A DNA stretch of 64,000 bases, from NCBI RefSeq assembly GCF_988242995.1, contig NZ_OZ547043.1; one strand, written 5' to 3'. Positions 20,058 to 64,000 of the stretch are shown piece by piece. The notes below the pieces were generated by a model. That model was not told where the DNA came from and did not search any database. It was given only the letters and a program-made list of their open reading frames with translations. The position numbers were made by a program, and so were the translations under genes. Positions within the stretch are counted from its first letter, which is position 1. Each line of letters begins with the position of its first letter.

Positions 20058-22694
20058 ATGTCATATCTGAATTTAAGACTTTACCAGCGAAACACACAAT
20101 GCTTGCATATTCGTAAGCATCGTTTGGCTGGTTTTTTTGTCCGACTCGTTGTCGCCTGTGCTTTTGCCGCACAGGCACCTTTGTCATCTGCCGACCTCTA
20201 TTTTAATCCGCGCTTTTTAGCGGATGATCCCCAGGCTGTGGCCGATTTATCGCGTTTTGAAAATGGGCAAGAATTACCGCCAGGGACGTATCGCGTCGAT
20301 ATCTATTTGAATAATGGTTATATGGCAACGCGTGATGTCACATTTAATACGGGCGACAGTGAACAAGGGATTGTTCCCTGCCTGACACGCGCGCAACTCG
20401 CCAGTATGGGGCTGAATACGGCTTCTGTCGCCGGTATGAATCTGCTGGCGGATGATGCCTGTGTGCCATTAACCACAATGGTCCAGGACGCTACTGCGCA
20501 TCTGGATGTTGGTCAGCAGCGACTGAACCTGACGATCCCTCAGGCATTTATGAGTAATCGCGCGCGTGGTTATATTCCTCCTGAGTTATGGGATCCCGGT
20601 ATTAATGCCGGATTGCTCAATTATAATTTCAGCGGAAATAGTGTACAGAATCGGATTGGGGGTAACAGCCATTATGCATATTTAAACCTACAGAGTGGGT
20701 TAAATATTGGTGCGTGGCGTTTACGCGACAATACCACCTGGAGTTATAACAGTAGCGACAGATCATCAGGTAGCAAAAATAAATGGCAGCATATCAATAC
20801 CTGGCTTGAGCGAGACATAATACCGTTACGTTCCCGGCTGACGCTGGGTGATGGTTATACTCAGGGCGATATTTTCGATGGTATTAACTTTCGCGGCGCA
20901 CAATTGGCCTCAGATGACAATATGTTACCCGATAGTCAAAGAGGATTTGCCCCGGTGATCCACGGTATTGCTCGTGGTACTGCACAGGTCACTATTAAAC
21001 AAAATGGGTATGACATTTATAATAGTACGGTGCCACCGGGGCCTTTTACCATCAACGATATCTATGCCGCAGGTAATAGTGGTGACTTGCAGGTAACGAT
21101 CAAAGAGGCTGACGGCAGCACGCAGATTTTTACCGTACCCTATTCGTCAGTCCCGCTTTTGCAACGTGAAGGGCATACTCGTTATTCCATTACGGCAGGA
21201 GAATACCGTAGTGGAAATGCGCAGCAGGAAAAACCCCGCTTTTTCCAGAGTACATTACTCCACGGCCTTCCGGCTGGCTGGACAATATATGGTGGAACGC
21301 AACTGGCGGATCGTTATCGTGCTTTTAATTTCGGTATCGGGAAAAACATGGGGGCACTGGGCGCTCTGTCTGTGGATATGACGCAGGCTAATTCCACACT
21401 TCCCGATGACAGTCAGCATGACGGACAATCGGTGCGTTTTCTCTATAACAAATCGCTCAATGAATCAGGCACGAATATTCAGTTAGTGGGTTACCGTTAT
21501 TCGACCAGCGGATATTTTAATTTCGCTGATACAACATACAGTCGAATGAATGGCTACAACATCGAAACACAGGACGGAGTTATTCAGGTTAAGCCGAAAT
21601 TCACCGACTATTACAACCTCGCTTATAACAAACGCGGGAAATTACAACTCACCGTTACTCAGCAACTCGGGCGCACATCAACACTGTATTTGAGTGGTAG
21701 CCATCAAACTTATTGGGGAACGAGTAATGTCGATGAGCAATTCCAGGCTGGATTAAATACTGCGTTCGAAGATATCAACTGGACGCTCAGCTATAGCCTG
21801 ACGAAAAACGCCTGGCAAAAAGGACGGGATCAGATGTTAGCGCTTAACGTCAATATTCCTTTCAGCCACTGGCTGCGTTCTGACAGTAAATCTCAGTGGC
21901 GACATGCCAGTGCCAGCTACAGCATGTCACACGATCTCAACGGTCGGATGACCAATCTGGCTGGTGTATACGGTACGTTGCTGGAAGACAACAACCTCAG
22001 CTATAGCGTGCAAACCGGCTATGCCGGGGGAGGCGATGGAAATAGCGGAAGTACAGGCTACGCCACGCTGAATTATCGCGGTGGTTACGGCAATGCCAAT
22101 ATCGGTTACAGCCATAGCGATGATATTAAGCAGCTCTATTACGGAGTCAGCGGTGGGGTACTGGCTCATGCCAATGGCGTAACGCTGGGGCAGCCGTTAA
22201 ACGATACGGTGGTGCTTGTTAAAGCGCCTGGCGCAAAAGATGCAAAAGTCGAAAACCAGACGGGGGTGCGTACCGACTGGCGTGGTTATGCCGTGCTGCC
22301 TTATGCCACTGAATATCGGGAAAATAGAGTGGCGCTGGATACCAATACCCTGGCTGATAACGTCGATTTAGATAACGCGGTTGCTAACGTTGTTCCCACT
22401 CGTGGGGCGATCGTGCGAGCAGAGTTTAAAGCGCGCGTTGGGATAAAACTGCTCATGACGCTGACCCACAATAATAAGCCGCTGCCGTTTGGGGCGATGG
22501 TGACATCAGAGAGTAGCCAGAGTAGCGGCATTGTTGCGGATAATGGTCAGGTTTACCTCAGCGGAATGCCTTTAGCGGGAAAAGTTCAGGTGAAATGGGG
22601 AGAAGAGGAAAATGCTCACTGTGTCGCCAATTATCAACTGCCACCAGAGAGTCAGCAGCAGTTATTAACCCAGCTATCAGCTGAATGTCGTTAA
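20058..22694 (+). CDS. fimD: outer-membrane fimbrial usher
   Basis: 878-aa usher-family protein. Confidence 0.95.
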   Translation: MSYLNLRLYQRNTQCLHIRKHRLAGFFVRLVVACAFAAQAPLSSADLYFNPRFLADDPQAVADLSRFENGQELPPGTYRVDIYLNNGYMATRDVTFNTGDSEQGIVPCLTRAQLASMGLNTASVAGMNLLADDACVPLTTMVQDATAHLDVGQQRLNLTIPQAFMSNRARGYIPPELWDPGINAGLLNYNFSGNSVQNRIGGNSHYAYLNLQSGLNIGAWRLRDNTTWSYNSSDRSSGSKNKWQHINTWLERDIIPLRSRLTLGDGYTQGDIFDGINFRGAQLASDDNMLPDSQRGFAPVIHGIARGTAQVTIKQNGYDIYNSTVPPGPFTINDIYAAGNSGDLQVTIKEADGSTQIFTVPYSSVPLLQREGHTRYSITAGEYRSGNAQQEKPRFFQSTLLHGLPAGWTIYGGTQLADRYRAFNFGIGKNMGALGALSVDMTQANSTLPDDSQHDGQSVRFLYNKSLNESGTNIQLVGYRYSTSGYFNFADTTYSRMNGYNIETQDGVIQVKPKFTDYYNLAYNKRGKLQLTVTQQLGRTSTLYLSGSHQTYWGTSNVDEQFQAGLNTAFEDINWTLSYSLTKNAWQKGRDQMLALNVNIPFSHWLRSDSKSQWRHASASYSMSHDLNGRMTNLAGVYGTLLEDNNLSYSVQTGYAGGGDGNSGSTGYATLNYRGGYGNANIGYSHSDDIKQLYYGVSGGVLAHANGVTLGQPLNDTVVLVKAPGAKDAKVENQTGVRTDWRGYAVLPYATEYRENRVALDTNTLADNVDLDNAVANVVPTRGAIVRAEFKARVGIKLLMTLTHNNKPLPFGAMVTSESSQSSGIVADNGQVYLSGMPLAGKVQVKWGEEENAHCVANYQLPPESQQQLLTQLSAECR

Positions 22695-50671: not shown

Positions 50672-53600
50672 ATGACTACACGCTATTTTTCGTCACTTAT
50701 TGAACAATCGTTGTCTCGTTCAACTGAAGCAACGCTCAGTATCATGGGCGTTACAAACCCGCAGTTGCGTGAACATCTCGCGCAGCAAATGGGGGCTGAT
50801 TGTGGGAAACCGGGCTCATTCCTTGCTTCTCCGGTATTCCAGCAAATGTTTGGCTGGAAGGAGTCAAACCACACGATGCGCAGTCTGACGGAAGGCAACG
50901 CATTGTTGAGCAAAGCAGTGGTTGATTCACTGGATGATCAGAGTAATGGCCGGTACCGATTTGGTGCTGACTGGAAGCCTTTTACACACCAGTTAGCCAG
51001 TTGGAAAGCTTTGCTGGAAAAGAAACATTCAGTGGTGGTAACCAGTGGTACGGGTTCAGGTAAAACGGAATGTTTTATGGTACCGGTGCTGGAAGATCTT
51101 TACCGGGAACTGCATGAAAATGGCAACAATCCGTTGGTCGGTGTCCGAGCCCTTTTTCTCTATCCATTGAACGCCTTGATTAATTCACAGCGCGAGCGTC
51201 TGGATGCCTGGACGCGTGGTTTTGGTACTGGGATCCGCTACTGCTTGTATAACGGAAATACAGAAGAGCTCCACGCAAAAATGAAAACAGTGCAGGATAA
51301 TAGACCAAATGAAGTCTTATCCCGTGAAAAGATGCGTCTGGAGCCAGCCCCGATTCTGGTGACCAACGGCACGATGCTGGAATATATGATGGTTCGCCAG
51401 GTCGACGCCCCGATTATCCAGCAATCCAAAGCACAAAAATCACTACGCTGGATTGTACTGGATGAAGCGCATACCTATGTCGGGTCGCAGGCCGCTGAAC
51501 TGGCACTCCAGCTGCGTCGTGTGATGACAGCGTTTGGCGTGACGCCAGATGATGTGCGCTTTGTAGCGACCTCTGCGACCATTGCCTGCAGCGACGCCGA
51601 AAAGCAGCTGAAAAAATTTCTCTCTGAATTATCCGGTATCCCGCAGGAGCGCATCGATGTTCTGGACGGAAGTCGGGTGATTCCTGAACTGGAACCATCC
51701 AAAAACGTTTCTGTTCCGTTAGACGAAATAGAGCAAATACCTGATCTGGATCTAAAAGATAAAAATGATAATAAAATTAAAGGGATAAGCCCTGAGCGCT
51801 TTTATGCGCTTACGCACTCCCCCGAAGCGCGTTACATACGTGAAATGTTGGTTAGCCAACCCAATCCAATGAAACTGGATGAGATGACGCAGCGGTTAAA
51901 TGCGCTGACAAAACAGCATTACAGCCAGCAGGAAGTACTGCGTTGGATCGATGTCTGTTCAGGGACTCAACCTAATGCAAAGGATCCCGCATTTCTTAAA
52001 GTCAGGGCGCATATCTTCCAGCGTAATACCCAAGGAATATGGGCTTGTGTTGATAAAGATTGCAGATTAAAGCACGGTACACCGCTCGAAAAAGGCTGGC
52101 CCTTTGGCTATGTGTATGTGAACCAGCGACAAAATTGTGACTGTGGAAGCCCTGTATACGAAGTTGCATTCTGTAATGATTGTAATGAGCCTCATCTTCT
52201 GGCGCAGGACAAAAAGGGCAAACTTGTCCAATGGGAAAATAAAGGTGGCGATGAGTTCTCCTTGCAGGATGAAGTACCTGTTGAACATGACACTACAGAG
52301 GAAAAAGTCGAAAAAGAGAACGGTTTCCTGCCTCCGTTGATTATTGCCGCAGGAGAGACCAGCGAGACAGGCTATACCCTACAACGCCTCGACCACCAGA
52401 CGCGCCGTATTGGCGTTATTAACAATGACAGCATTCCGCTGATTATTAATGATGTTGAACAGGTTTGTAGCGCCAGTGGCTGTGGCTACAGAGGCATGAG
52501 TGGGAAACAGCCCTTCCGGCGTGCACTATTAGGTGGGCCATTTTACGTTACTAATATCGTGCCCACCGTTCTTGAGTATTGTCAGGACTTTACCAGTGAT
52601 GAAGGCAAAGAGGGCGTCGGACCAGATTCGTTGCCAGGGCGAGGACGTCGACTCATTACCTTTACGGACAGTCGACAAGGTACAGCTCGAATGGCGGTGC
52701 GTATGCAGCAAGAAGCAGAACGCAGTCTCTTACGCGGAAGCGTAGTCGAAATTCTGAGCTGGCATCAACGGACGCAAACGTCCACGGCGCCGAATGCCAA
52801 TGCCGATCTGGAAAAATTAGCGGCCAGGGCAAAGCAAGCCCGTGAGCAGGCAGAAGAATATCGAAGCTGGGGAATGCCAGACCAGGCGAAATTGTCACAA
52901 GCACAGGCTGAACAGCTTGAACAGGCTTATCAGGCTGCAACCGGTGGAAAAGCAGCAACTACCCTGGTATCCCGCACCTGGACAGAAATGGTTAACGAGC
53001 TTAAAGATAAAGCCGATATCCGTGGCCCGGTACTGAAATATAACCACTATTTGCAGCCTGAAGTGTTTAATAAAAACGGCGGGCCACTAAAGCTTTCGGA
53101 AATGTTGTTGTTCCGGGAATTCATGCGTCGCCCTAAACGGACTAACAGCCTGGAAACACAGGGGCTGGTTCAGGTTGGTTACCAGGGGCTGGAGAAAATA
53201 CATAAGAGCCCCTTGCACTGGCAGGAAAAAGGATTAACGCTGGATGACTGGCGCGATTTTCTCAAGGTTACGTTGGATCTTTATGTTCGCGAAAGCAACT
53301 TCACACAGCTGGATGATGAGCTGAAAAACTGGATTGGTAGCCGTTTTTCATCAAAATTCGTCCGTAACCCGGAATCAAAAGATCCTGAAGATAATCAGAA
53401 CAGACGCTGGCCTCAAATTCGTAATGGCAACGTATCCCATCGTTTAGCGAAGTTACTGATGCTGGGGGCTGGATTCAAAACCGTCAATACGGCGACTATT
53501 GATATTATCAATACATGGCTGAAAGAAGCATGGGCCCAACTTACCGGACCACTTGCAGTACTGAAACCCGATGGCAACCGTTTTTATTTACCGAAAGAGC

Positions 53601-56600
53601 ATATGACTTTTTCTTTAATCACGGATGCCTGGATTTGCCCGGTAACCAATAAAATCCTGGATACGGCTTTTAAAGGCTTAACCCCTTATCTGCCCACCCA
53701 TATTTCGTTCGAGCATCTTACCCAGGCGCAATATGACACTTTTGTCGCGCAGAAAGTCACCATGCCGGAAATCTGGAAGCTGGATCGTTCACAGGAAGAC
53801 TACGCAGAGGGTCTGGCAAAAGCACGAGACTGGGTCAACAATGATCCGCTGATCGCACAATTGCGGTCGGAAAACGTCTGGACAGACATCAACGATCGTG
53901 TAGTGGAAGGCGGTTTCTACTATCGCACTGCCGAGCACTCTGCCCAGCAGTCGTCAGAACGCCTGCAAAGCTATGAAAAGATGTTCAAGAACGGGCAACT
54001 AAATGTTCTCAACTGTTCCACCACCATGGAAATGGGGGTTGATATTGGGGGCATTACTGCGGTGGTAATGAACAACGTTCCGCCACATCCGGCCAACTAT
54101 TTACAGCGCGCCGGGCGAGCCGGGCGTAGTAAAGAATCACGCGCGATCTCTTATACCCTATGCAAAGGTAACCCACACGACCAGCAGGTTTTTGCCAACC
54201 CACTCTGGCCATTTGAAACCATGATCCCGGCACCCATGGTCGCGATGAACTCCGCCCGACTGGTGCAACGTCACGTCAATGCATTATTACTGTCTGACTT
54301 TTTATGTAACGTTATTGGCGAAACCGATAAAGAGAAAACCAGCCTCGATAGCCTCTGGTTTTTCGGTGAAGATGACGGGCAGTCAAAATGCGAACGCTTT
54401 AAAGTCTGGCTGGAACGCCCGGTTCTTGATATCGACATGGCGCTGGAACGGCTGGTGAAAGGTACGGCGTTGCATGGCGCAAGAGCCGAACATCTGCGGG
54501 ATAAAACAATCAATGCGATCACCTTCCTGCAACAGCGGTGGCTCTCCGTTTATCGCGATCTCGTGACCCAGGAGCGTGAGTCGCAGCCGCAAACGCCTTA
54601 TCGTAAGCGCATAGAGCTGGAGAAGAAACGGCACTGTGGCGAGTATCTGCTGCGCGATCTGGCTGCCAGAACCTTCCTGCCGGGATACGGTTTCCCGACA
54701 GATGTAGTGACGTTTGATAACTTCACGATGGAAGATTATATCCGCGAAAAATCGCAGAAAAGTCGTGATAAAAAGGACCGTGAAGATAACGTCTCCCGTT
54801 ATAAAGGATTACCTTCCCGTAACCTCGGTGTTGCCATTCGTGAATATGCACCGGGAGCAGAGATCATTCTTGATGGTCGTGTCTTCCGCTCTGCCGGTGT
54901 CTCACTGCACTGGCACAACATTAATGCTGATACCAATGAAGCCCAGCGTCTGGATTGCGCCTGGCGCTGTCACAAATGCGGGACCATTGGCTATGAAGAG
55001 GGGATGAGCAGTTCCGGGATGCTCTTTTGCTCCAACAGCGCCTGCGGCGAAAAAATAACCATGGATAATCGCCGTCAGGTGTTGCAGCCTGCCGGGTTTG
55101 TCACCGATGCACACGCTCCGGTAACGAACAATATTGAAACCATGAAATTCGTCCCGGTTGTCCCCGCGTGGGTCTTTGTTAAAGCAGAGCCTGTACCGTT
55201 GCCTAACCCGCTAATGGGTTATATGGCTTCTGGGGCTGATGGGCATGTTTTCCAGCAAAGTTTGGGGGAAGGTGGACACGGTTATGCATTGTGTCTGAGC
55301 TGTGGCCGTGCGGAGTCGATGCTGAATGAAAATGATGCACCGAAAAGTATGGAAGCTCACTATCCACCGCGTCCGGGTAAAGCGGACCGCGACAGCCAGA
55401 ATCATCGTCTGATTTGCCCCGGTTCGACGGCACTCATGAAGAACGTCACCCTGGGCGCACTGGCGCGCACCGATGTCTTTGAAATGGTTCTGCGCAAACC
55501 GCAAAACGGCGAGTATCTGCCAGATAACACAGAAGAGGGGCGGATTGTCGCTATGACTCTGGCGGTTGCTCTGCGTCAGGCGCTGGCAGGCGTTCTGGGT
55601 ATCTCCGCCGCAGAACTCGGCTATTCTGTACGTCCGGTCAGACTGGAGGATGGGCAATCGGTATTAGCCGTTCAGCTTTATGATGTGATCAGCGGTGGTG
55701 CTGGTTTTGCCTCCAGCGCACCGGTACATATTGAAGCTATATTGCAGGGAATGGTGAAACAGTTAGGCTGCCGCCATTGTGATACTGCATGCAGTGAATG
55801 TCTGCTTGATTCCCAGACTCGCCACGATCACGATTTGCTGGATCGCAAAGTGGCGCTGGCTTGGCTTGGCGATGACTTCACGTATTACATCGGTTTACCG
55901 GATGAAGAGACATTCTCGCTGCCGGATGCCCGCTACTGCCCTGGCGCTATTGGCGATACGATTCGCCGGGCGATTAACGAAGGCGCTGAAAAGCTCACCC
56001 TGTGGATGACTGGCGCGCCCAATGAGTGGGATTTATACGGCCGTCAGTTCCGCGCGGCTATTCAGAGCTATCGGCTAAAAGACAACGTCGAGGTCGATCT
56101 TGTTATTCCTGCGGGAGTGGATGACCCAGACCTGTTGCATGAACTATCGCAATTTACTGCGCTGGGTGTGCGGTTGTGCCATGTTGAGCAGGAGCTGCAA
56201 TTACCGATTGTTGCCCAGGTCACCTTTGCCGATCGCGTGATGACGCTGGCCTCTCGCAGTCAGCAGGCAACGATTCCGGGGCCGGAGTGGCACCTGAATG
56301 ACGAACTGGTGGTGCGTAGTCTCGGTTATCAAACGGTAGAACTGAACGAGTTTATTCTGCCCGCTAAAGCCGCCAACGCTGTCGAGCGGGTCAAAGACAT
56401 TCAGATCCACAAACAGTTGAATGGACCACTTTCGCAGTTTGGGCAACGCTTCTGGGACGTGCTGTTTAACGACCATGAAGAAGCGCAGTCACTGATGAAA
56501 AACACGCGAATTACCGGCGTTCACTATACCGATCGCTATCTGCAAAACCCGGTTGCGCTGGCGTTGTTGGGATCAATTCTGAAACCGCTAAAAACAAAGC

Positions 56601-57016
56601 TGACCGATGGCGCTGAAGTGGCGCTGGATACGCTGTTTAAAGATAAAGATCGCCCCGGTAACCGGCCTTTCCATGACTGGATGAGCATAGCGGATTTTCA
56701 GGATTTCGCTGATCAGTGGTTTGCTGCTGCGCTGGGCAGGCCGATAGAACTGACGGTGTTCGATTCGCCGCGCGATATCCCTCACCATCGTAAACTGACG
56801 GTGACTTTTGAGGATGGTCAGGTATTGAAGATCCGCTTCGATCAGGGGATGGGCTACTGGCGCATCAACTTTGCATCGCAATGGCATTACTTTGATTTCC
56901 GCGATGACGTTTCTTTCCAGTTAGTCAAAATGGCTCAGGCCTGCAAGGAAGGGAATGTGGCCAACAGCGAAGAGAGCTGGGCAACGGATGTGCTGGTGGA
57001 GGTGATCGCCTCCTGA
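50672..57016 (+). CDS. giant SF2 (DEAH-type) helicase, 2114 aa, with Cys-rich zinc-ribbon clusters (DUF1998/MrfA-like); DruE-like candidate
   Basis: Walker [11 protein letters not shown] (51041-51070); DEAH box VLDEAH (51455-51472); FVATSAT; motif [10 protein letters not shown] (54104-54127); Cys clusters at 52046-52183, 54956-55045, 55292-55303 and 55769-55801; AAGGA RBS before the ATG. Confidence 0.85.
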
Positions 57017-57023
57017 TGATGTG

Positions 57024-57050
57024 CCGCTCCCGACGTCGTGTCGGGAGCGG
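57024..57050. terminator. bidirectional hairpin terminator between the convergent helicase gene and mcrC
   Basis: Perfect inverted repeat ccgctcccgac-gtcgt-gtcgggagcgg 8 nt after the helicase stop, followed by tattgtct. Confidence 0.55.
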
Positions 57051-57072
57051 TATTGTCTATAAAACTTACCGC

Positions 57073-58119
57073 TTATTTGAGATATTCATCGAAAATGGCG
57101 AGTAATTCTTGATGTATACACGGCCATTCCTGACCTAAATTGACGGTACACAGGCCAATATCGAAGCCATTAATTTTATAACGATGTTTCACTGCGGTGT
57201 CTACGTGGGGGTATATTAATAAACCCCCTATGTTTTCGCCATTTTCAGGTTTTAACGACCATAAGTAATTCATCAGTTGATAAAGATTTTGAGAGTGAAA
57301 TTTTTCTGAGCCCATTCGTCGTGAAAAAATGCTCTTATAGTATTTGGCGTCAACGATAAGTATTTTTTCTGATGAGCGAATGGTGATGTCAGTTTCCATT
57401 CGAGGTAACAAATTAAGTGACTGATCCGATATGCTCGATGCATCCCATTTTAAATAAGAGCGGGTTGTATTTGCAGACGTTAATTCACGGCGGCAAAATT
57501 CAAAAAGAAACTTTTGATAAAGTAATGACATCTCTTTTTCGTTTCTTTCAAAATCATAGAAACGGTAGTGTCCTTTGTTTTGACCTGGGATAGAATTATT
57601 GACGATGAACTTACAGACGCTGATAACAAATTTATAATAACGCGTGTTCTTTCCGCCATTCAGATAGCTGAAATGCTGCGGAGTTAAATGAAGAGTGCTA
57701 ATGCCCGGTAATTTTCTATAAAGTGAACGAGCTTCATCTCTGATGGTTGAGTTTAACTTTTCATGCTTAATTAACATGGCTAATGTGCTTTTTATAATTC
57801 GGTTAGCCAGCGTATCTTCATTAAGCAGATCAAAAGTACTGACGGTTTTCCCATGATTAAGATGGAAGCCGCGTATTGTTTTAGCAAACTCTATTCGCCC
57901 TTTGATGCCAGGAATGATCTCGGTATTAGGATTGTAATCAAGCTCAAGCCCTCGGCGTGAAAGCTGTAAAACCCCTTTATTTAATACATACCCCAGGATA
58001 TCAAGAAGATTGTTACCGGGAATGGCTTCAAGGTCGGCCTGCTTAATTTCCTGTAAATAACCCCATGCATAGGTAAGCATGTAATAGATATTACGGACAG
58101 GTATCACGGGCTGTTCCAC
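57073..58119 (-). CDS. mcrC: McrBC restriction endonuclease, nuclease subunit
   Basis: 348-aa ORF whose start overlaps the mcrB stop; recognised as McrC. Confidence 0.9.
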   Translation of the reverse strand: MEQPVIPVRNIYYMLTYAWGYLQEIKQADLEAIPGNNLLDILGYVLNKGVLQLSRRGLELDYNPNTEIIPGIKGRIEFAKTIRGFHLNHGKTVSTFDLLNEDTLANRIIKSTLAMLIKHEKLNSTIRDEARSLYRKLPGISTLHLTPQHFSYLNGGKNTRYYKFVISVCKFIVNNSIPGQNKGHYRFYDFERNEKEMSLLYQKFLFEFCRRELTSANTTRSYLKWDASSISDQSLNLLPRMETDITIRSSEKILIVDAKYYKSIFSRRMGSEKFHSQNLYQLMNYLWSLKPENGENIGGLLIYPHVDTAVKHRYKINGFDIGLCTVNLGQEWPCIHQELLAIFDEYLK

Positions 58120-59498
58120 TATGAGTCACCTAATAATTTGTCGGCCCATATCTGTTGTTTATAGGGGTCATCAAAGAAATATTCTTCGAGTAAAGGGGCG
58201 ATATCCGTCATCACAATTTCCTTAAGCCATTGCGTATCAGGAGAGGTGCCATCTTCCAACCCGGAGCAGAAGTAACTATGCCCAATGCGGAATCCTTTCC
58301 CAAGGATAGTGGCCTCTTTGCTGATTTCCTGGTTTAACTCATTCATTTTTTGGCATAAAGACTCAACAAATGAAGGTTCTGCTTTTTTATTCAGTAAAAA
58401 ATTACGGAACTGTGGTGTATCAAAACCAGGCTCAATATCTATGAAAGAAAATCGTCTGCGCAGGGCATAATCAACAACGGCCAGAGAGCGATCGGCAGTA
58501 TTCATTAAACCGATAATATAAACATTCTCCGGGACATAGAATCGTTCTTCATCGTTTTCGGAATAGGTTAAGGGAACAGACCAGTTTTCACCTCGTTTAT
58601 CATGTTCCATTAACATCATCACTTCGCCAAATACTTTACTGAGATTGGCACGATTGATTTCATCTATAATAAAAACATACTTTTTCTCTGGCTGCTCTTT
58701 AGCTTGCTGACAAAAATTGTAAAATATGCCGTCTTTACGTCGGAAGCCGACGCCATTCGGACGATAGCCCTGTATAAAATCCTCATAGCTATAAGATTGA
58801 TGGAACTGAACCATATTGACGCGTTGCGGAGCCTTTTCTCCTGTCAGCAGGTAAGCCAGACGGCGTGCAACAAAGGTTTTTCCAACGCCGGGCGGCCCCT
58901 GGAGGATAATATTTTTTTTGATGGTTAATCGTTTGAGTATCGTCTCTATCGTGGTTTCAGGGATAAACAAATCATTTAACGCATCTTCCAGACAGTATGA
59001 TTCAGTTTTTGACATAGGTGGAATAACACTCTTGCCAGAATTAAATATTAATTTATAGTCGTTGATTATGTTGTCCAGCATGGAGGCAAACCGGGTATAA
59101 TCAAGACCCTGTGAGACTTTTTGGGAACAGGCGTAATAGGACTGTCCGTATTTTTTAGGATAAACACCTGAAGTTGTCTGGAAATACTCTGCGATTGTTT
59201 TAGGTATGTCTGAAGAGAACTGCCATTGGGCATGTGGTTTATTCGTGTCGCTTATACCATAAGCCAAAACCAACTCATCAAAATCTTTATAATAGAGAAT
59301 AACGGGATATATACCGTTAGAAACTTCCTGACCTTCTCCCAGAAATGCAAACCAGGGAATAGATGTAAAATTGCCATAACCGAAACTCACTTTTACTCGC
59401 AGGTTACGGTAAGACGTTGGATAATCTTTGGTGGATTGTGAACTTTTTTGCTGTGCTTGCTCAATAAATTTTTCAATCCAGGCTTGAATTGATTCCAT
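58119..59498 (-). CDS. mcrB: McrBC 5-methylcytosine-specific restriction enzyme, GTPase/DNA-binding subunit
   Basis: AAA+ Walker A GPPGVGKT and Walker B FIIDEINRAN; start placed at MESIQAWIEKF for about 459 aa (ORF track begins 6 codons earlier). Confidence 0.9.
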   Translation of the reverse strand: MESIQAWIEKFIEQAQQKSSQSTKDYPTSYRNLRVKVSFGYGNFTSIPWFAFLGEGQEVSNGIYPVILYYKDFDELVLAYGISDTNKPHAQWQFSSDIPKTIAEYFQTTSGVYPKKYGQSYYACSQKVSQGLDYTRFASMLDNIINDYKLIFNSGKSVIPPMSKTESYCLEDALNDLFIPETTIETILKRLTIKKNIILQGPPGVGKTFVARRLAYLLTGEKAPQRVNMVQFHQSYSYEDFIQGYRPNGVGFRRKDGIFYNFCQQAKEQPEKKYVFIIDEINRANLSKVFGEVMMLMEHDKRGENWSVPLTYSENDEERFYVPENVYIIGLMNTADRSLAVVDYALRRRFSFIDIEPGFDTPQFRNFLLNKKAEPSFVESLCQKMNELNQEISKEATILGKGFRIGHSYFCSGLEDGTSPDTQWLKEIVMTDIAPLLEEYFFDDPYKQQIWADKLLGDS

Positions 59499-59659
59499 AA
59501 GATGTGCCTTCCTCATTGCTAAGCCTCTATTATCGCTTTCGCAACGTACTGAAACAATAGATTTTTACTGCAAAAGGTGGTGGGTAAATATTTACTGAGG
59601 GGGAAAGTTTCTATTGAGTCAGTGGAAGGCTCCCGGTGGTTAACCGGGAGTAAACGCTG

Positions 59660-60001
59660 TTACGCGACTTTCTGTTTACCGGCAATCACTCCAATAAACG
59701 CCTGCACCTGCTTTTGTTTACGTGCCGACAGCTTGCACACCTGGCGCAGCGACTGCATCAGTTCGCTCTCTTCGACGGCGAGTGGTTGGGCGGTGAGGAC
59801 AATACAGCCTTCCATCACTTTGACATCTACCGCCGTGCCGGTGGTAAAACCGGCGGCTTCCAGCCACTGACCTTTCAGGGTGATGGCGGGAATACGGCTG
59901 TAATCCGGGTAGCGACTCGCATAACTCACGGTTAATTGACGGTTATTTGCCGGGGAGACTTCTGCTTCGAACGGTTGTGCAATAGAATGCATGTCAGTCA
60001 T
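59660..60001 (-). CDS. symE: SOS-induced toxin SymE (AbrB-fold RNA endonuclease-like)
   Basis: 113-aa [55 protein letters not shown]...; upstream LexA box. Confidence 0.85.
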
Positions 60002-60072
60002 GATTACTATTCCTTAGAAATAGGGATTGTGATTAGCGGTGCGGGTGTGTTGGCGCACATCCGCACCGCGCT
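59996..60072 (+). ncRNA. symR: cis-antisense sRNA SymR (antitoxin RNA of symE), approximate
   Basis: Plus-strand TAGAAT -10 at 59983-59988 inside the symE 5' codons; GC-rich hairpin at 60036-60069 would end a roughly 77-nt transcript antisense to the symE RBS and start codon. Boundaries inferred. Confidence 0.35.
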
Positions 60073-60078
60073 AAATAC

Positions 60079-60094
60079 CTGGATATATCATCAG
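60079..60094. promoter_or_regulatory. LexA box (SOS operator) upstream of symE
   Basis: CTGGATATATCATCAG fits CTGT-N8-ACAG with one mismatch in each half; about 80 bp upstream of the symE start. Confidence 0.5.
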
Positions 60095-60228
60095 TAAATA
60101 CCGGGAAAGTCCAGCTAAAAATAGAATAAAATGGGCAATTTCCGGAATGATTTAAATATATTTATGTGAGTTATGATTGGCGAGAAATAATAAAAAGCGC
60201 ACCGGAAAGGTGCGCCAGAAAATAATGA

Positions 60229-61653
60229 TCAGAACTTTTTACGCGAGGCTTTTTTACCCCCGCTGGCTGCGCGCTCAGCTTTGATTTTCTCCAGCAACGC
60301 AGCGGCGCTGTTTTCTCCGCTGATTAAATCCGGGTTTTCGGCCCGCCACTGGGCGGTGAGTTCACCACGGAACGCTTTTGCCAGGATGGATTGCGTCAGG
60401 TTGTTGACGCGGGCTAAGGCGTTGTTGACCTGTTTTTCTATGGAGTCGGCGTAGGCGAAGAGTTGCTCGACGCGGCGAACGATTTCGTGTTGTTCTTCTA
60501 TAGACGGTAAAGGGACAAATGCATTTTTAAGATCTTTTAAATTTAATGTCTTTCTGGCGACCTCCTTAGATGACTGAACTAGCCATGTTTGCATAACTGG
60601 TGAACTTAACCATATATGGAGAAACATAGGAACAATAATCTTATATTCAGGAGATATTCTGGCAACGGCACGAGCGATATTAACATTTATATCTTCTCTA
60701 ACAATACCTATTCTACCTATAGCCCCAACAATTGTTACAAGAATGTCATTCTTTCGTACTTTGGAACGCTTATATTGTAAATCTATTTCCTTTGAAATTT
60801 TACGAAGATGATTTAAATCTACTTCACCATCGTTAATATCACAAACACGAATTAATTCTATACCGTCTTTTATATCATCTCCAGGTTGCACCACACCATA
60901 ACATAATGGTCTTTGTGTATTGATAATGTTATTCAAAATTGTTTCACTCCAGTCTTCTGGAATAAGGATTTTGTAGTTATCTAATTCAACTTTTTTTGTT
61001 ATAAAATCTTTATCTTCTTTGGTCAACCTACCAGTTACTGCCGCAGCCAACACCGCCTGACGAAAACGTTTCAGGATTTGTGGGATTTGCTCAAGGCGTG
61101 CTTTGGTGCTGTCTACCTGCGCCAGCAGCGTATCGAGTTTTTCAGCGATGATTTTTTGCTCGGCAAGTGGTGGCAACGGAAGTAGGGTATCTTGAAGTGT
61201 CCTGGAAGAAAGATGCTTTACAGTAACCGAGGACGTATTTGCATTGATTGCGGATAAATATCCTGGTAAGGCGTGATAGAAAAACCTTTTATTGTATTTG
61301 TCTTCCTGAACTTCAATTTTACATACTCGTTGATTTAACAGAGCTGGTTCTGAGCACCATATAGTTGCATTAAAATCACCATCCATTCCCACGATTAAGT
61401 CTTCGGGATATACCCAATATCCCTCAGGAATTTGACCCGAGTAATAAGTCGATGTATTACCTTTTAGAACATCACGAATTCTAATTAATGGTACACCATC
61501 TTTACGATTATTAAATTCTGACGACTTAAAAGCAAAACCGTTTGTGATGTTTGCTACGGAATCCATTGAAATACGTAACCAGCTATCATGGATTGAAAGT
61601 AACCCATTGATATTTTGCTCAATTAATTCTTTTGATGTTGAGTTGAAACTCAT
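60229..61653 (-). CDS. hsdS: type I restriction-modification specificity subunit
   Basis: 474-aa ORF with two variable target-recognition regions separated by a conserved central repeat (LPPLAEQKIIAEKLDTLLAQVDSTKARLEQIPQILKRFRQAVL) and a similar C-terminal repeat (LPSIEEQHEIVRRVEQLFAYADSIEKQVNN); 4-nt overlap with hsdM. Confidence 0.9.
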   Translation of the reverse strand: MSFNSTSKELIEQNINGLLSIHDSWLRISMDSVANITNGFAFKSSEFNNRKDGVPLIRIRDVLKGNTSTYYSGQIPEGYWVYPEDLIVGMDGDFNATIWCSEPALLNQRVCKIEVQEDKYNKRFFYHALPGYLSAINANTSSVTVKHLSSRTLQDTLLPLPPLAEQKIIAEKLDTLLAQVDSTKARLEQIPQILKRFRQAVLAAAVTGRLTKEDKDFITKKVELDNYKILIPEDWSETILNNIINTQRPLCYGVVQPGDDIKDGIELIRVCDINDGEVDLNHLRKISKEIDLQYKRSKVRKNDILVTIVGAIGRIGIVREDINVNIARAVARISPEYKIIVPMFLHIWLSSPVMQTWLVQSSKEVARKTLNLKDLKNAFVPLPSIEEQHEIVRRVEQLFAYADSIEKQVNNALARVNNLTQSILAKAFRGELTAQWRAENPDLISGENSAAALLEKIKAERAASGGKKASRKKF

Positions 61654-63239
61654 TCCTTCACCCCACCAAACGCTTCTTCCAGCAACTGACGCTGTGCATC
61701 CGCCTCATCGCTCGCTCCCAGTTCACGTATCAGCGCATCCAGTTCGCCCAGCGCCTGTACCAGCTCGCCCATCGCTTCTGCCGCTAATACATCCGGCTCC
61801 GGCAGGTTGTCGGCATCAATGCTATCTTTATCTTTCAGCCAGGAGATATCCAGCGAATCGGATTTCGTGGTGCGGATCCACTCGCGGGTGAACTTACGCC
61901 AGCGGCTGGTAGCCAGGTGCTGGTCGGTGTTTTTGTTCTCTTCGCTGTCGGCAACTTCCGTCTCTTCGGCGTTAAAACTCCATTCCCCTTCGCTACGCGG
62001 GCTTAAACCGTGCGGATCTTCGCCATACACGCGCTCAAACGGCTGCAGATGCTCGTCGGTAAACGGCGTGCGTTTGCCGAAGCTCGGCATATTGGTACGC
62101 AGGTCGTACACCCACACATCATCGGTACAGTTCTTATCCTGATGCGGGTTCGCCACCGTCCCTTTGGTAAAGAACAGCACGTTCGCCTTCACGCCCTGCG
62201 CGTAAAAAATACCGGTCGGCAGACGCAGAATAGTGTGCAGATGACACTTATCCATCAGGTCACGACGGATGTCCGTGCCTTTGCCGCCTTCAAACAGCAC
62301 GTTATCCGGCACCACCACCGCCGCACGACCGCCGGGGTGCAGTGTTTCGATAATATGCTGCATAAAGCACAATTGTTTGTTGCTGGTCGGGTGAACAAAG
62401 GTACGGGTAATGTTGGTGCCTGCGGCGCTACCAAACGGCGGGTTAGTGGCGACAATATGCGCCTTCGGCAGGTTTTCACCGTCGCTACCCAGGGTGTTGC
62501 CCAGACGGATTGCGCCACCGTGGTCGAGGTTGCCTTCGATATCGTGCAGCAGGCAGTTCATTAGCGCCAGACGACGGGTGCCGGGTACCAGTTCGAGGCC
62601 GATAAACGCGCGGTGGATCTGGAAATCCTGCGTGTCGCCATCAAGGTCGTCCAGATCGTTAGTCTGCGACTTAACGTAGCGGTCAGCTTCAATCAAAAAG
62701 CCCGCTGTACCTGCTGCCGGGTCCTGCACCACTTCACGCGGCTGCGGTTTCAGCAGATGAATAATGGTTTTAATCAGCGGACGTGGGGTGAAGTACTGGC
62801 CCGCGCCAGACTTGGTTTCGTTGGCGTTTTTCTGCAACAGCCCTTCGTACATATCGCCGAAGTCATCGCGTGACTTACCGTGCGCGCCGTTGTACCAGTC
62901 CAGTGAATCCATATTGCTGACCAGTTCGGTCAACTGTTTCGGCTGGGTAATGGTGGTGTTGACGTTCTGGAACACCGCCTGCACCAGCTTTTGATTGTCG
63001 GCGCCCAGATGCACCAGCAGGTTACGGTAGAACTGCAACTGCTCCTGGCCGATGCGGGATTTCAGGTCATCCCAGCGGTAGCCTTCCGGCAGGTATTCCG
63101 CTTCCTGTCCGGTTTCTTTACACATTTTCAAAAACAGCAGCGAGGCGAGTTCATTGACGTAGTTTTGATAGGAAACGCCGCCATCGCGCAGGTTGTCGCA
63201 CAGTTTCCACAGCTTCGCGACCAGATCGTTATTGTTCAT
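61650..63239 (-). CDS. hsdM: type I restriction-modification N6-adenine DNA methyltransferase subunit
   Basis: 529-aa ORF with the catalytic NPPF motif (IVATNPPFGSAAG) and SAM-binding region. Confidence 0.95.
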   Translation of the reverse strand: MNNNDLVAKLWKLCDNLRDGGVSYQNYVNELASLLFLKMCKETGQEAEYLPEGYRWDDLKSRIGQEQLQFYRNLLVHLGADNQKLVQAVFQNVNTTITQPKQLTELVSNMDSLDWYNGAHGKSRDDFGDMYEGLLQKNANETKSGAGQYFTPRPLIKTIIHLLKPQPREVVQDPAAGTAGFLIEADRYVKSQTNDLDDLDGDTQDFQIHRAFIGLELVPGTRRLALMNCLLHDIEGNLDHGGAIRLGNTLGSDGENLPKAHIVATNPPFGSAAGTNITRTFVHPTSNKQLCFMQHIIETLHPGGRAAVVVPDNVLFEGGKGTDIRRDLMDKCHLHTILRLPTGIFYAQGVKANVLFFTKGTVANPHQDKNCTDDVWVYDLRTNMPSFGKRTPFTDEHLQPFERVYGEDPHGLSPRSEGEWSFNAEETEVADSEENKNTDQHLATSRWRKFTREWIRTTKSDSLDISWLKDKDSIDADNLPEPDVLAAEAMGELVQALGELDALIRELGASDEADAQRQLLEEAFGGVKE

Positions 63240-63439
63240 TGTAAGTTCCGTAAATTAAGCAGCGGCCCGCATGTTCGGGGCCGCAGAAGAAGAAATTGCC
63301 GAGGGTAATATACACAAAATCATTCAGATTGCATCAAGGCGGCAAGTGAGCGAATCCCCGGGAGCGTACAGAAGTACTTGACCGGGGTAAACGAGCGCAG
63401 CCAACGCAGAGGCAGCCTGAAGGATGAAGTGTATACGTG

Positions 63440-64000
63440 TCAGGCCAGCTCGTCCCAAATGTAATCGCTGAATTTATCGAGCAGGTTGTCGAGATTATCG
63501 TCAAAGGTTCTTTGCAGCATCGCCTTCCCGCCGCGACGGTGGAAGTTGCCGGTTTTGAAGACATCGTCGTCGAGCACCACTTTCTCTTTCAGCGCCTGCG
63601 CTAAACGATCGAGCCAGCTTAATTGCTCGCTGCTCCAGTCATTTTCGCCCTTAATGCGCGTCAGCGCGTGATCGACACGTTCCTCAAACGGTTTCAGCGC
63701 ATCGCCCACCGCAGCGCGGCGAATATGTCCAATCAGCCGGGCGGCGATATCTTCATTGCGCGTCTCTTGCCATGCTTTGCGCAGGGAAGATTCCTCAAAG
63801 TGCTGGCGGTCAAACCACTCCTGTAGCTCGACCAGCCCTTTACGGGTGAGATCGCGCGGGCGATTAATCACCGCCTGCAATGCCGGCTGTGCATTCGGGG
63901 AACGTTGCACCAGCGAGTCAAAGGCTTCGAGGAAATCCTGCGGCGTGTCGTAATCACCGTACAGCGATTTTACGCTCACCACTTCATCGTCGATATCGAG
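63440..64000 (-). CDS. hsdR: type I restriction enzyme R subunit, C-terminal 187 codons only (gene continues beyond window)
   Basis: Minus-strand ORF ending ...DYIWDELA with stop at 63440; position upstream of hsdM as in hsdRMS operons. Confidence 0.85.
   Translation of the reverse strand, partial: LDIDDEVVSVKSLYGDYDTPQDFLEAFDSLVQRSPNAQPALQAVINRPRDLTRKGLVELQEWFDRQHFEESSLRKAWQETRNEDIAARLIGHIRRAAVGDALKPFEERVDHALTRIKGENDWSSEQLSWLDRLAQALKEKVVLDDDVFKTGNFHRRGGKAMLQRTFDDNLDNLLDKFSDYIWDELA

Follow-up and report, generated by a model that had tools for sequence, protein, structure and literature searches.

A segment of Escherichia coli DNA lying between mcrB and hsdS raises the question of whether it encodes the gene symE together with its antisense RNA SymR, and whether the regulatory elements that an earlier note had read from the letters alone are correctly assigned. 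When both strands of the window (the whole stretch of DNA that was analyzed, 64,000 nucleotides in length) were read, all four features claimed in that note were found where it had placed them (Table 1). Our main reading, to which we give a probability of about 94%, is that this locus is the chromosomal symE-symR module of E. coli, in its B-type allele, between mcrBC and hsdSMR. This is an already known system in a common natural allele, and the finding is correct but ordinary.

Table 1 Elements of the symE-symR locus, with positions in the window.
Feature	Position	Strand	Basis
symE CDS, 113 aa, ATG start	59660-60001	-	ORF, Pfam, NCBIfam, K-12 identity, genome annotation
symR -35-like hexamer TTCTGC, weak, putative	59960-59965	+	17 nt upstream of the -10
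symR -10 hexamer TAGAAT, in symE codons 5-7	59983-59988	+	Same as the K-12 hexamer; conservation
SymR antisense RNA, 77 nt	59996-60072	+	Rfam RF01809, 93.1 bits (gathering score 61), E=4e-18
SymR stem-loop 1, apex complementary to the symE Shine-Dalgarno (SD) and spacer	59996-60034	+	Rfam consensus structure
symE SD AAGGA, 9 nt before the ATG	60011-60015	-	Read off the sequence
SymR 3' GC-rich stem-loop, 15 bp, loop UGGC	60036-60069	+	Fold, covariation, strand asymmetry
LexA box, 20-mer TACTGATGATATATCCAGGT on the symE strand	60077-60096		Sequence, K-12 orthology, conservation
symE -10-like TGATAT, in the LexA box, putative	60085-60090	-	17 nt downstream of TGGACT
symE -35-like TGGACT, putative	60108-60113	-	Conserved block

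The identity of symE was confirmed by two profile matches, one to Pfam PF08845 SymE_toxin (77.2 bits for a cutoff of 29, E=1e-21) and one to the NCBIfam equivalog NF010128, "endoribonuclease SymE" (223.2 bits for a cutoff of 132, over residues 1-112 of 113). The protein is 94% identical to K-12 SymE, with seven amino-acid differences. Over this region, the window shares 99.9% identity with E. coli B/BL21, strain C, and many wild isolates, and 93-94% with K-12. The neighbors of symE in the window (mcrB and hsdS) are those found in MG1655, where symE (b4347) and the non-coding RNA symR (b4625) are annotated between mcrB and hsdS with the same 6-nt overlap. The locus is present in ~2870 of 5426 complete E. 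coli genomes, and symE is annotated in more than 2800. A terminator of hsdS was located at 60216-60196 on the minus strand in a sigma-70/terminator scan, hence symE is a transcription unit separate from hsdS.

The surroundings of the locus differ among strains. The window hsdS (60229-61653) is intact and encodes 474 aa, while BL21(DE3) carries an IS1 within the same gene. Upstream of symE, either hsdS of different types or hsdR is found, and the downstream neighbor also depends on the strain (mcrB, a GmrSD-type gene, DUF1127/yjiS, or a member of the STY4851 family). As neighbors vary on both sides, symE lies at a junction of variable defense genes. In E. coli strain 600055, an IS1 in the 5' part of symE (at ~655-680 of locus L012) has cost the module its start codon, LexA box, and promoter along with SymR, a natural inactivation. 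Over 52000-64000, the best genome matches scored slightly under perfect, which suggests a handful of private differences.

On the strand opposite to symE, the earlier note had proposed an antisense RNA of roughly 77 nt crossing the ribosome-binding site and the start codon. Both its extent and its length were borne out by Rfam: the SymR match covers all 77 of 77 model positions without truncation, it is the single Rfam match in 58000-62000 at E<=1, and its offset to symE is that of symR b4625 in MG1655. SymR reaches 6 nt into the symE ORF and covers the start codon (60001-59999), the SD (60015-60011), and almost the whole 5' UTR, and its complementarity to symE, perfect over 77 nt with the SD and AUG included, is a direct consequence of this overlap. 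In K-12, SymR is very stable and in 10-fold excess over symE mRNA. It acts in trans, and an anti-SymR RNA de-represses SymE (PMC1891008). A K-12 mutant of the symR -10, which lacks SymR, showed a ~3-fold rise in symE mRNA and a more than 7-fold rise in the protein, and LexA, SymR, and Lon were found to repress SymE additively (PMC1891008). RNase III was not required in K-12, where no role was seen for it. As the SymR of the window also covers the SD and the AUG and extends 6 nt into the ORF, a translational block like that in K-12 is expected, and this allele would by analogy behave like that of K-12.

The plus-strand TAGAAT that had been taken as the -10 of this RNA is the very hexamer mutated in K-12, where two silent changes (CATTCT to CACTCC on the symE strand) abolished SymR (Kawano, Aravind & Storz 2007, PMC1891008). 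Read on the plus strand, this mutation turns AGAATG into GGAGTG and hits positions 2 and 5 of TAGAAT. The -10 hexamer and the +1 region of the window are identical to those of K-12, and TAGAAT is invariant among the 11 sampled E. coli alleles. For a wider view, 38 enterobacterial loci were gathered with a SymR-derived DNA pattern, making 39 with the window, and a SymE-like ORF with its ATG at the same offset was found in 38/38 of the retrieved loci. At -13 to -8, the 39 loci carry TAGAAT (21), TACAAT (17), or TACACT (1). In the -35 region of symR, ACTTCTG is conserved across genera, yet this stretch is also coding. The transcription start site (TSS) of SymR was found exactly by Cappable-seq in O157:H7 EDL933 (PMC10469882).

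The GC-rich hairpin had been assigned by the earlier note to the symE 5' leader. The inverted repeat is present, GCGGTGCGGGTGTG (60036-60049) pairing with CACATCCGCACCGC (60056-60069), with one position that forms G.U on the plus strand and C.A on the minus strand, and ViennaRNA extended the stem to 15 pairs. Its assignment to the leader did not hold, as covariation and strand asymmetry both point to SymR. The 77-nt plus-strand RNA folded into two stem-loops with an MFE of -41.4 kcal/mol (z=-7.2). The hairpin might still work mainly in the symE leader, as an attenuator, a stabilizer, or a control of translation, rather than as an element of SymR. Indeed, a mirror hairpin of 13 pairs with an internal mismatch does form in the minus-strand RNA (MFE of -32.2 kcal/mol for the 101-nt leader, z=-3.2), and it would stand between the putative symE TSS and the SD.

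However, an alignment of 38 SymR sequences, in which the columns of the 3' helix were unconstrained by the retrieval pattern, showed compensatory changes on both sides at 9/15 pairs. The covariation score of this helix was reached in 0/500 shuffles, and slid controls paired at no more than 49%. Pairing was kept in 97.5% of the helix cells on the plus strand and in 84.4% on the minus strand, many of the substitutions producing a G.U on the former and a C.A on the latter. The mean MFE of the hairpin was -27.0 kcal/mol for the plus strand and -21.1 kcal/mol for the minus strand, and the plus-strand form was the more stable one for the hairpin in 37/38 sequences and for the whole RNA in 38/38. This better pairing on the plus strand indicates that selection acts on SymR. 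In addition, the Rfam SymR model contains the hairpin, and no U-tract follows it on the minus strand. A role mainly in the leader is thus very unlikely in our estimation.

On the comparison of these sequences, the GC-rich hairpin is best read as primarily the 3' stem-loop of SymR, and its mirror copy in the symE leader as a by-product of the overlap. No U-tract was found in the flanks of 60036-60069 on either strand; therefore, the 3' hairpin of SymR is not a textbook intrinsic terminator. It probably defines the 3' end and the stability of SymR, and the high stability reported for this RNA would fit a protective terminal stem. In stem-loop 1, 88% of the cells were paired, and most of this element was invariant, partly by ascertainment.

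In some alleles, the loop of the 3' hairpin (60050-60055) occurs as its reverse complement. While the window and K-12 read GTG-TTGGCG-CAC, ATCC 25922 and an Enterobacter locus (L010 and L013) read GTG-CGCCAA-CAC, and a Raoultella locus (L033) reads GTG-CGCTAA-CAC. This variant resembles a short inversion of the loop between the two arms of the stem, an event that apparently took place more than once.

Upstream of symE, a near-consensus LexA box had been described. A CTG-N10-CAG core (CTGGATATATCATCAG, 60079-60094) with a spacer of 8/10 A/T is present and conserved there, while the term near-consensus proved generous: against the LexA 20-mer consensus TACTG(TA)5CAGTA (PMC6590174), the window 20-mer matches at only 14/20 positions, with six mismatches and one match fewer than K-12. 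By consensus fit, this is only a moderate LexA box. No match to the consensus 20-mer with <=3 mismatches was found anywhere in the 64,000-nt window. The CTG-N10-CAG pattern alone gave 21 matches, compared with 12.1 ± 3.5 in shuffles; those at 21526, 47955, and 58379, with spacers at least as A/T-rich as that of the symE box, were rejected as chance occurrences within long ORFs. In the last one (58379-58394, CTGCTTTTTTATTCAG), 9/10 spacer positions are A/T, more than in any other CTG-N10-CAG match of the window; it lies in the coding sequence of mcrB, probably by chance.

Such a frequency of the bare pattern, along with a sigma-70 consensus scan that detected neither the symR nor the symE promoter, might suggest that the motifs of the symE locus are themselves chance matches without any regulatory role. 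Against this, the symE box is intergenic and lies 6 nt past the 3' end of SymR, and a CTG-N10-CAG box is kept 6-12 nt past this end in 35/39 loci (window included) from many enterobacterial genera. The spacer sequence of the box differs between two sequence families, while CTG and CAG are kept. The box is thus credible because of its position and conservation, the pattern alone being uninformative. As the positions of the box, the -10, the SymR structure, and the ORF are all conserved across genera, and as experimental data in K-12 and EDL933 support a regulatory role, chance is effectively refuted, and we give it a negligible probability.

The LexA site of K-12 yjiW/symE is known (PMC1891008), with a mid-range heterology index of 7.9 (PMC11228462), and this orthologous box differs from that of the window by one base, CTGT being replaced by CTGG (60082). 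It could be argued that the CTGG box is too degenerate for useful LexA binding, which would leave symE under the control of SymR and Lon alone. The window box has one mismatch more than that of K-12, and position 60082, read on the symE strand, is A in 29/35 boxes and C in only 3/35, the CTGT of K-12 being the usual state in other genera. Even for the K-12 box, the induction of symE with AZT was modest (1.5-fold; 2.5-fold lexA-dependent, PMC11228462).

However, CTGG is the usual state in E. coli, found in 10/11 sampled alleles of a box that is otherwise strictly conserved (two alleles also carry CTGGAC). EDL933 has the same LexA 16-mer and flanks as the window, and its symE (EDL933_RS28195) was 2.5-fold up with ciprofloxacin and listed among the SOS genes (PMC11125564). 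In K-12, symE was induced clearly by mitomycin C (PMC1891008). We consider it unlikely that the CTGG box fails to bind LexA usefully. As CTGG is the commonest form in E. coli, the common operator lies one step further from the consensus than that of the laboratory reference, and the operator of the window allele is a normal E. coli form with no defect.

A promoter for symE can be proposed around this box. The stretch AAAGTCCAGC, which reads GCTGGACTTT on the symE strand and includes the -35-like TGGACT, is invariant in the 11 E. coli alleles, and the motif A[AG][TC]CCA is present in 31/35 boxed loci. It lies within a conserved block that stops near 60125, beyond which alleles with different upstream neighbors (hsdS, hsdR, IS1) diverge. 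The putative -10 falls within the LexA box, where T-[T/G]-A-N-A-T is kept at columns 7-12. Transcription of symE would then start near 60078, giving a leader of ~77 nt. The duplex between SymR and symE was reported to cover the entire SymR (PMC7967276), which fits a symE TSS at or upstream of ~60072. A coordinate search of the supplements of the EDL933 Cappable-seq paper (PMC10469882) did not find a symE TSS. Another promoter-like sequence, at 60183-60155 on the minus strand, was rejected as the conserved symE promoter since alleles with different upstream neighbors do not share the DNA in which it lies. Separately, position 60102, which falls in the spacer of the putative symE promoter, is C in the window, where BL21 and its relatives have A, K-12 has G, and none of the best-matching E. 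coli genomes has C.

The earlier note had also placed the locus within the logic of SymE/SymR type I toxin-antitoxin systems. The locus is indeed symE/symR, but the label "toxin" needs a caveat. SymE is a soluble protein of 113 aa, with a probable AbrB-like domain, and does not have the small hydrophobic membrane peptide form of type I toxins, so that the locus counts as a type I member only in the regulatory sense. This atypicality of symE/symR is already known, as is that of an antitoxin RNA which is stable and made in excess. A sequence search of the PDB found no relative of SymE. Its AF2 monomer model had a mean pLDDT of 71 and a pTM of 0.42, and a Foldseek search with this model against the PDB gave no match with E <0.4; the weak, non-significant matches were to MazE (1mvf_D, 2mru) and AbrB (1yfb), with target-normalized TM scores of 0.5-0.56 over ~48 residues.

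SymE was first described through a ribosome-associated RNA cleavage (PMC1891008). According to PMC11894785, Thompson et al. 2022 found no RNase activity, with instead a genome-wide non-specific DNA binding and a condensation of the nucleoid, and the current MG1655 annotation is "nucleoid-associated protein SymE". The endoribonuclease activity has been disputed, and current evidence points to a revised role as a nucleoid-condensing DNA binder. The symE/symR module might not be a true toxin-antitoxin pair at all, SymE being an SOS-induced nucleoid-associated protein fine-tuned by an antisense RNA, and its harm an artifact of overexpression. The dissimilarity of SymE to the small hydrophobic peptides of other type I toxins and the stability and excess of SymR, unlike a labile antitoxin, would agree with this. 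Conversely, overproduction of SymE inhibits growth in K-12 and is counteracted by SymR, the protein is degraded by Lon, and three layers of repression (LexA, SymR, and Lon) suggest that it is dangerous (PMC1891008). We see the absence of a true toxin-antitoxin pair as a serious possibility that falls somewhat short of even odds. It touches the name of the system and the activity of the protein, and it leaves the sequence features intact.

Truncated SymE ORFs (30-95 aa, some cut at contig ends) were observed in several species (L014, L023, L033, L037, L043, and L048). Wherever sequence is available, a SymR-like stretch is still there, in most cases along with the LexA box, whose CTG half is lost in L014.

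The region 60002-60025 (SymR positions 7-30, containing the symE SD and spacer) is a hot spot of polymorphism, as 10/24 of its columns vary among E. coli alleles compared with only 6/62 in the adjacent 5' coding part of symE. It has at least five haplotypes, all of which retain a purine-rich SD (AAGGA as in the window, GGAG, or AGGGA). Across genera, the apex of SymR stem-loop 1 also varies, its flanks being invariant. Two symER loci were found per genome in Raoultella planticola (L038 and L039) and in Ca. Pantoea gossypiicola (L044 and L045), the L045 locus being without an intact CTG-N10-CAG box. Co-resident SymRs differ in the apex of stem-loop 1 and, with compensation, along the whole 3' stem. 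A speculative explanation, which we hold to be rather unlikely, is that the apex of stem-loop 1 is a specificity determinant against cross-repression between symER modules, whether resident together or newly acquired, with CTGG also tuning the SOS sensitivity. If true, this would be a small twist on a known system and not a new one.

Together, these elements suggest the following mechanism for the module. Transcription of symE on the minus strand would start from a promoter that has its -10 region within the LexA box core. With the -10 in this location, LexA is predicted to block symE transcription until DNA damage triggers its cleavage. A constitutive plus-strand promoter within symE codons 5-7 would fire at 59996 to produce a stable SymR made of two stem-loops, the 3' GC-rich one being the hairpin of the earlier note. 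SymR may then pair with the start of the ORF, the SD, and nearly the entire 5' UTR, which would block translation and moderately lower the mRNA level. The product would be an AbrB/MazE-like protein, harmful when overproduced, that probably acts by binding DNA non-specifically and condensing the nucleoid rather than by cleaving RNA. For this allele, the SOS induction, the role of the symR -10, the repression by SymR, and the degradation of SymE by Lon are expected by analogy with the experiments in K-12 and EDL933.

The discovery value of the locus is small, since symE/symR has been characterized since 2005-2007, has entries in Rfam, Pfam, and NCBIfam, and already figures in the MG1655 annotation. 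The check shows that a reading made only from the DNA letters was accurate, with the hairpin reassigned to SymR, and the comparison across genera adds modest support for selection on the LexA operator, the internal symR promoter, and the SymR 3' stem-loop.

Compared with known systems, the closest is symE (yjiW)/symR (ryjC) of K-12 itself, which has the same gene order (mcrB-hsdS), 6-nt overlap, 77-nt SymR, and TAGAAT -10. The LexA box has the same position, the -35-like block is shared, and the sequence of the 3' hairpin is identical bar one base: a G44-C71 pair closes the SymR 3' stem in the window, where K-12 has an A.C mismatch. The two SymRs differ by nine substitutions clustered at positions 7-29, in the SD and spacer, the GGAG of K-12 becoming AAGGA in the window. 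Such differences are natural variation between alleles, and the window allele is also carried by E. coli B/BL21, strain C, and many wild isolates.

Like symE/symR, the SOS-controlled type I pairs tisB/istR-1 and dinQ/agrB of E. coli combine a LexA-repressed toxin with a constitutive small RNA that blocks its translation. However, these systems make small membrane peptides as toxins and encode their RNAs divergently or adjacently, with imperfect pairing, whereas symE/symR has a fully complementary cis-antisense RNA and the soluble, probably AbrB-like protein of 113 aa described above. In cis-antisense type I pairs such as ibs/sib and hok/sok, as in symE/symR, the antisense RNA overlaps the toxin mRNA where its translation is initiated. 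Compared with these systems, SymR stands out by its unusual stability and its 10-fold excess, there is no mok-like leader ORF, and RNase III showed no role in K-12.
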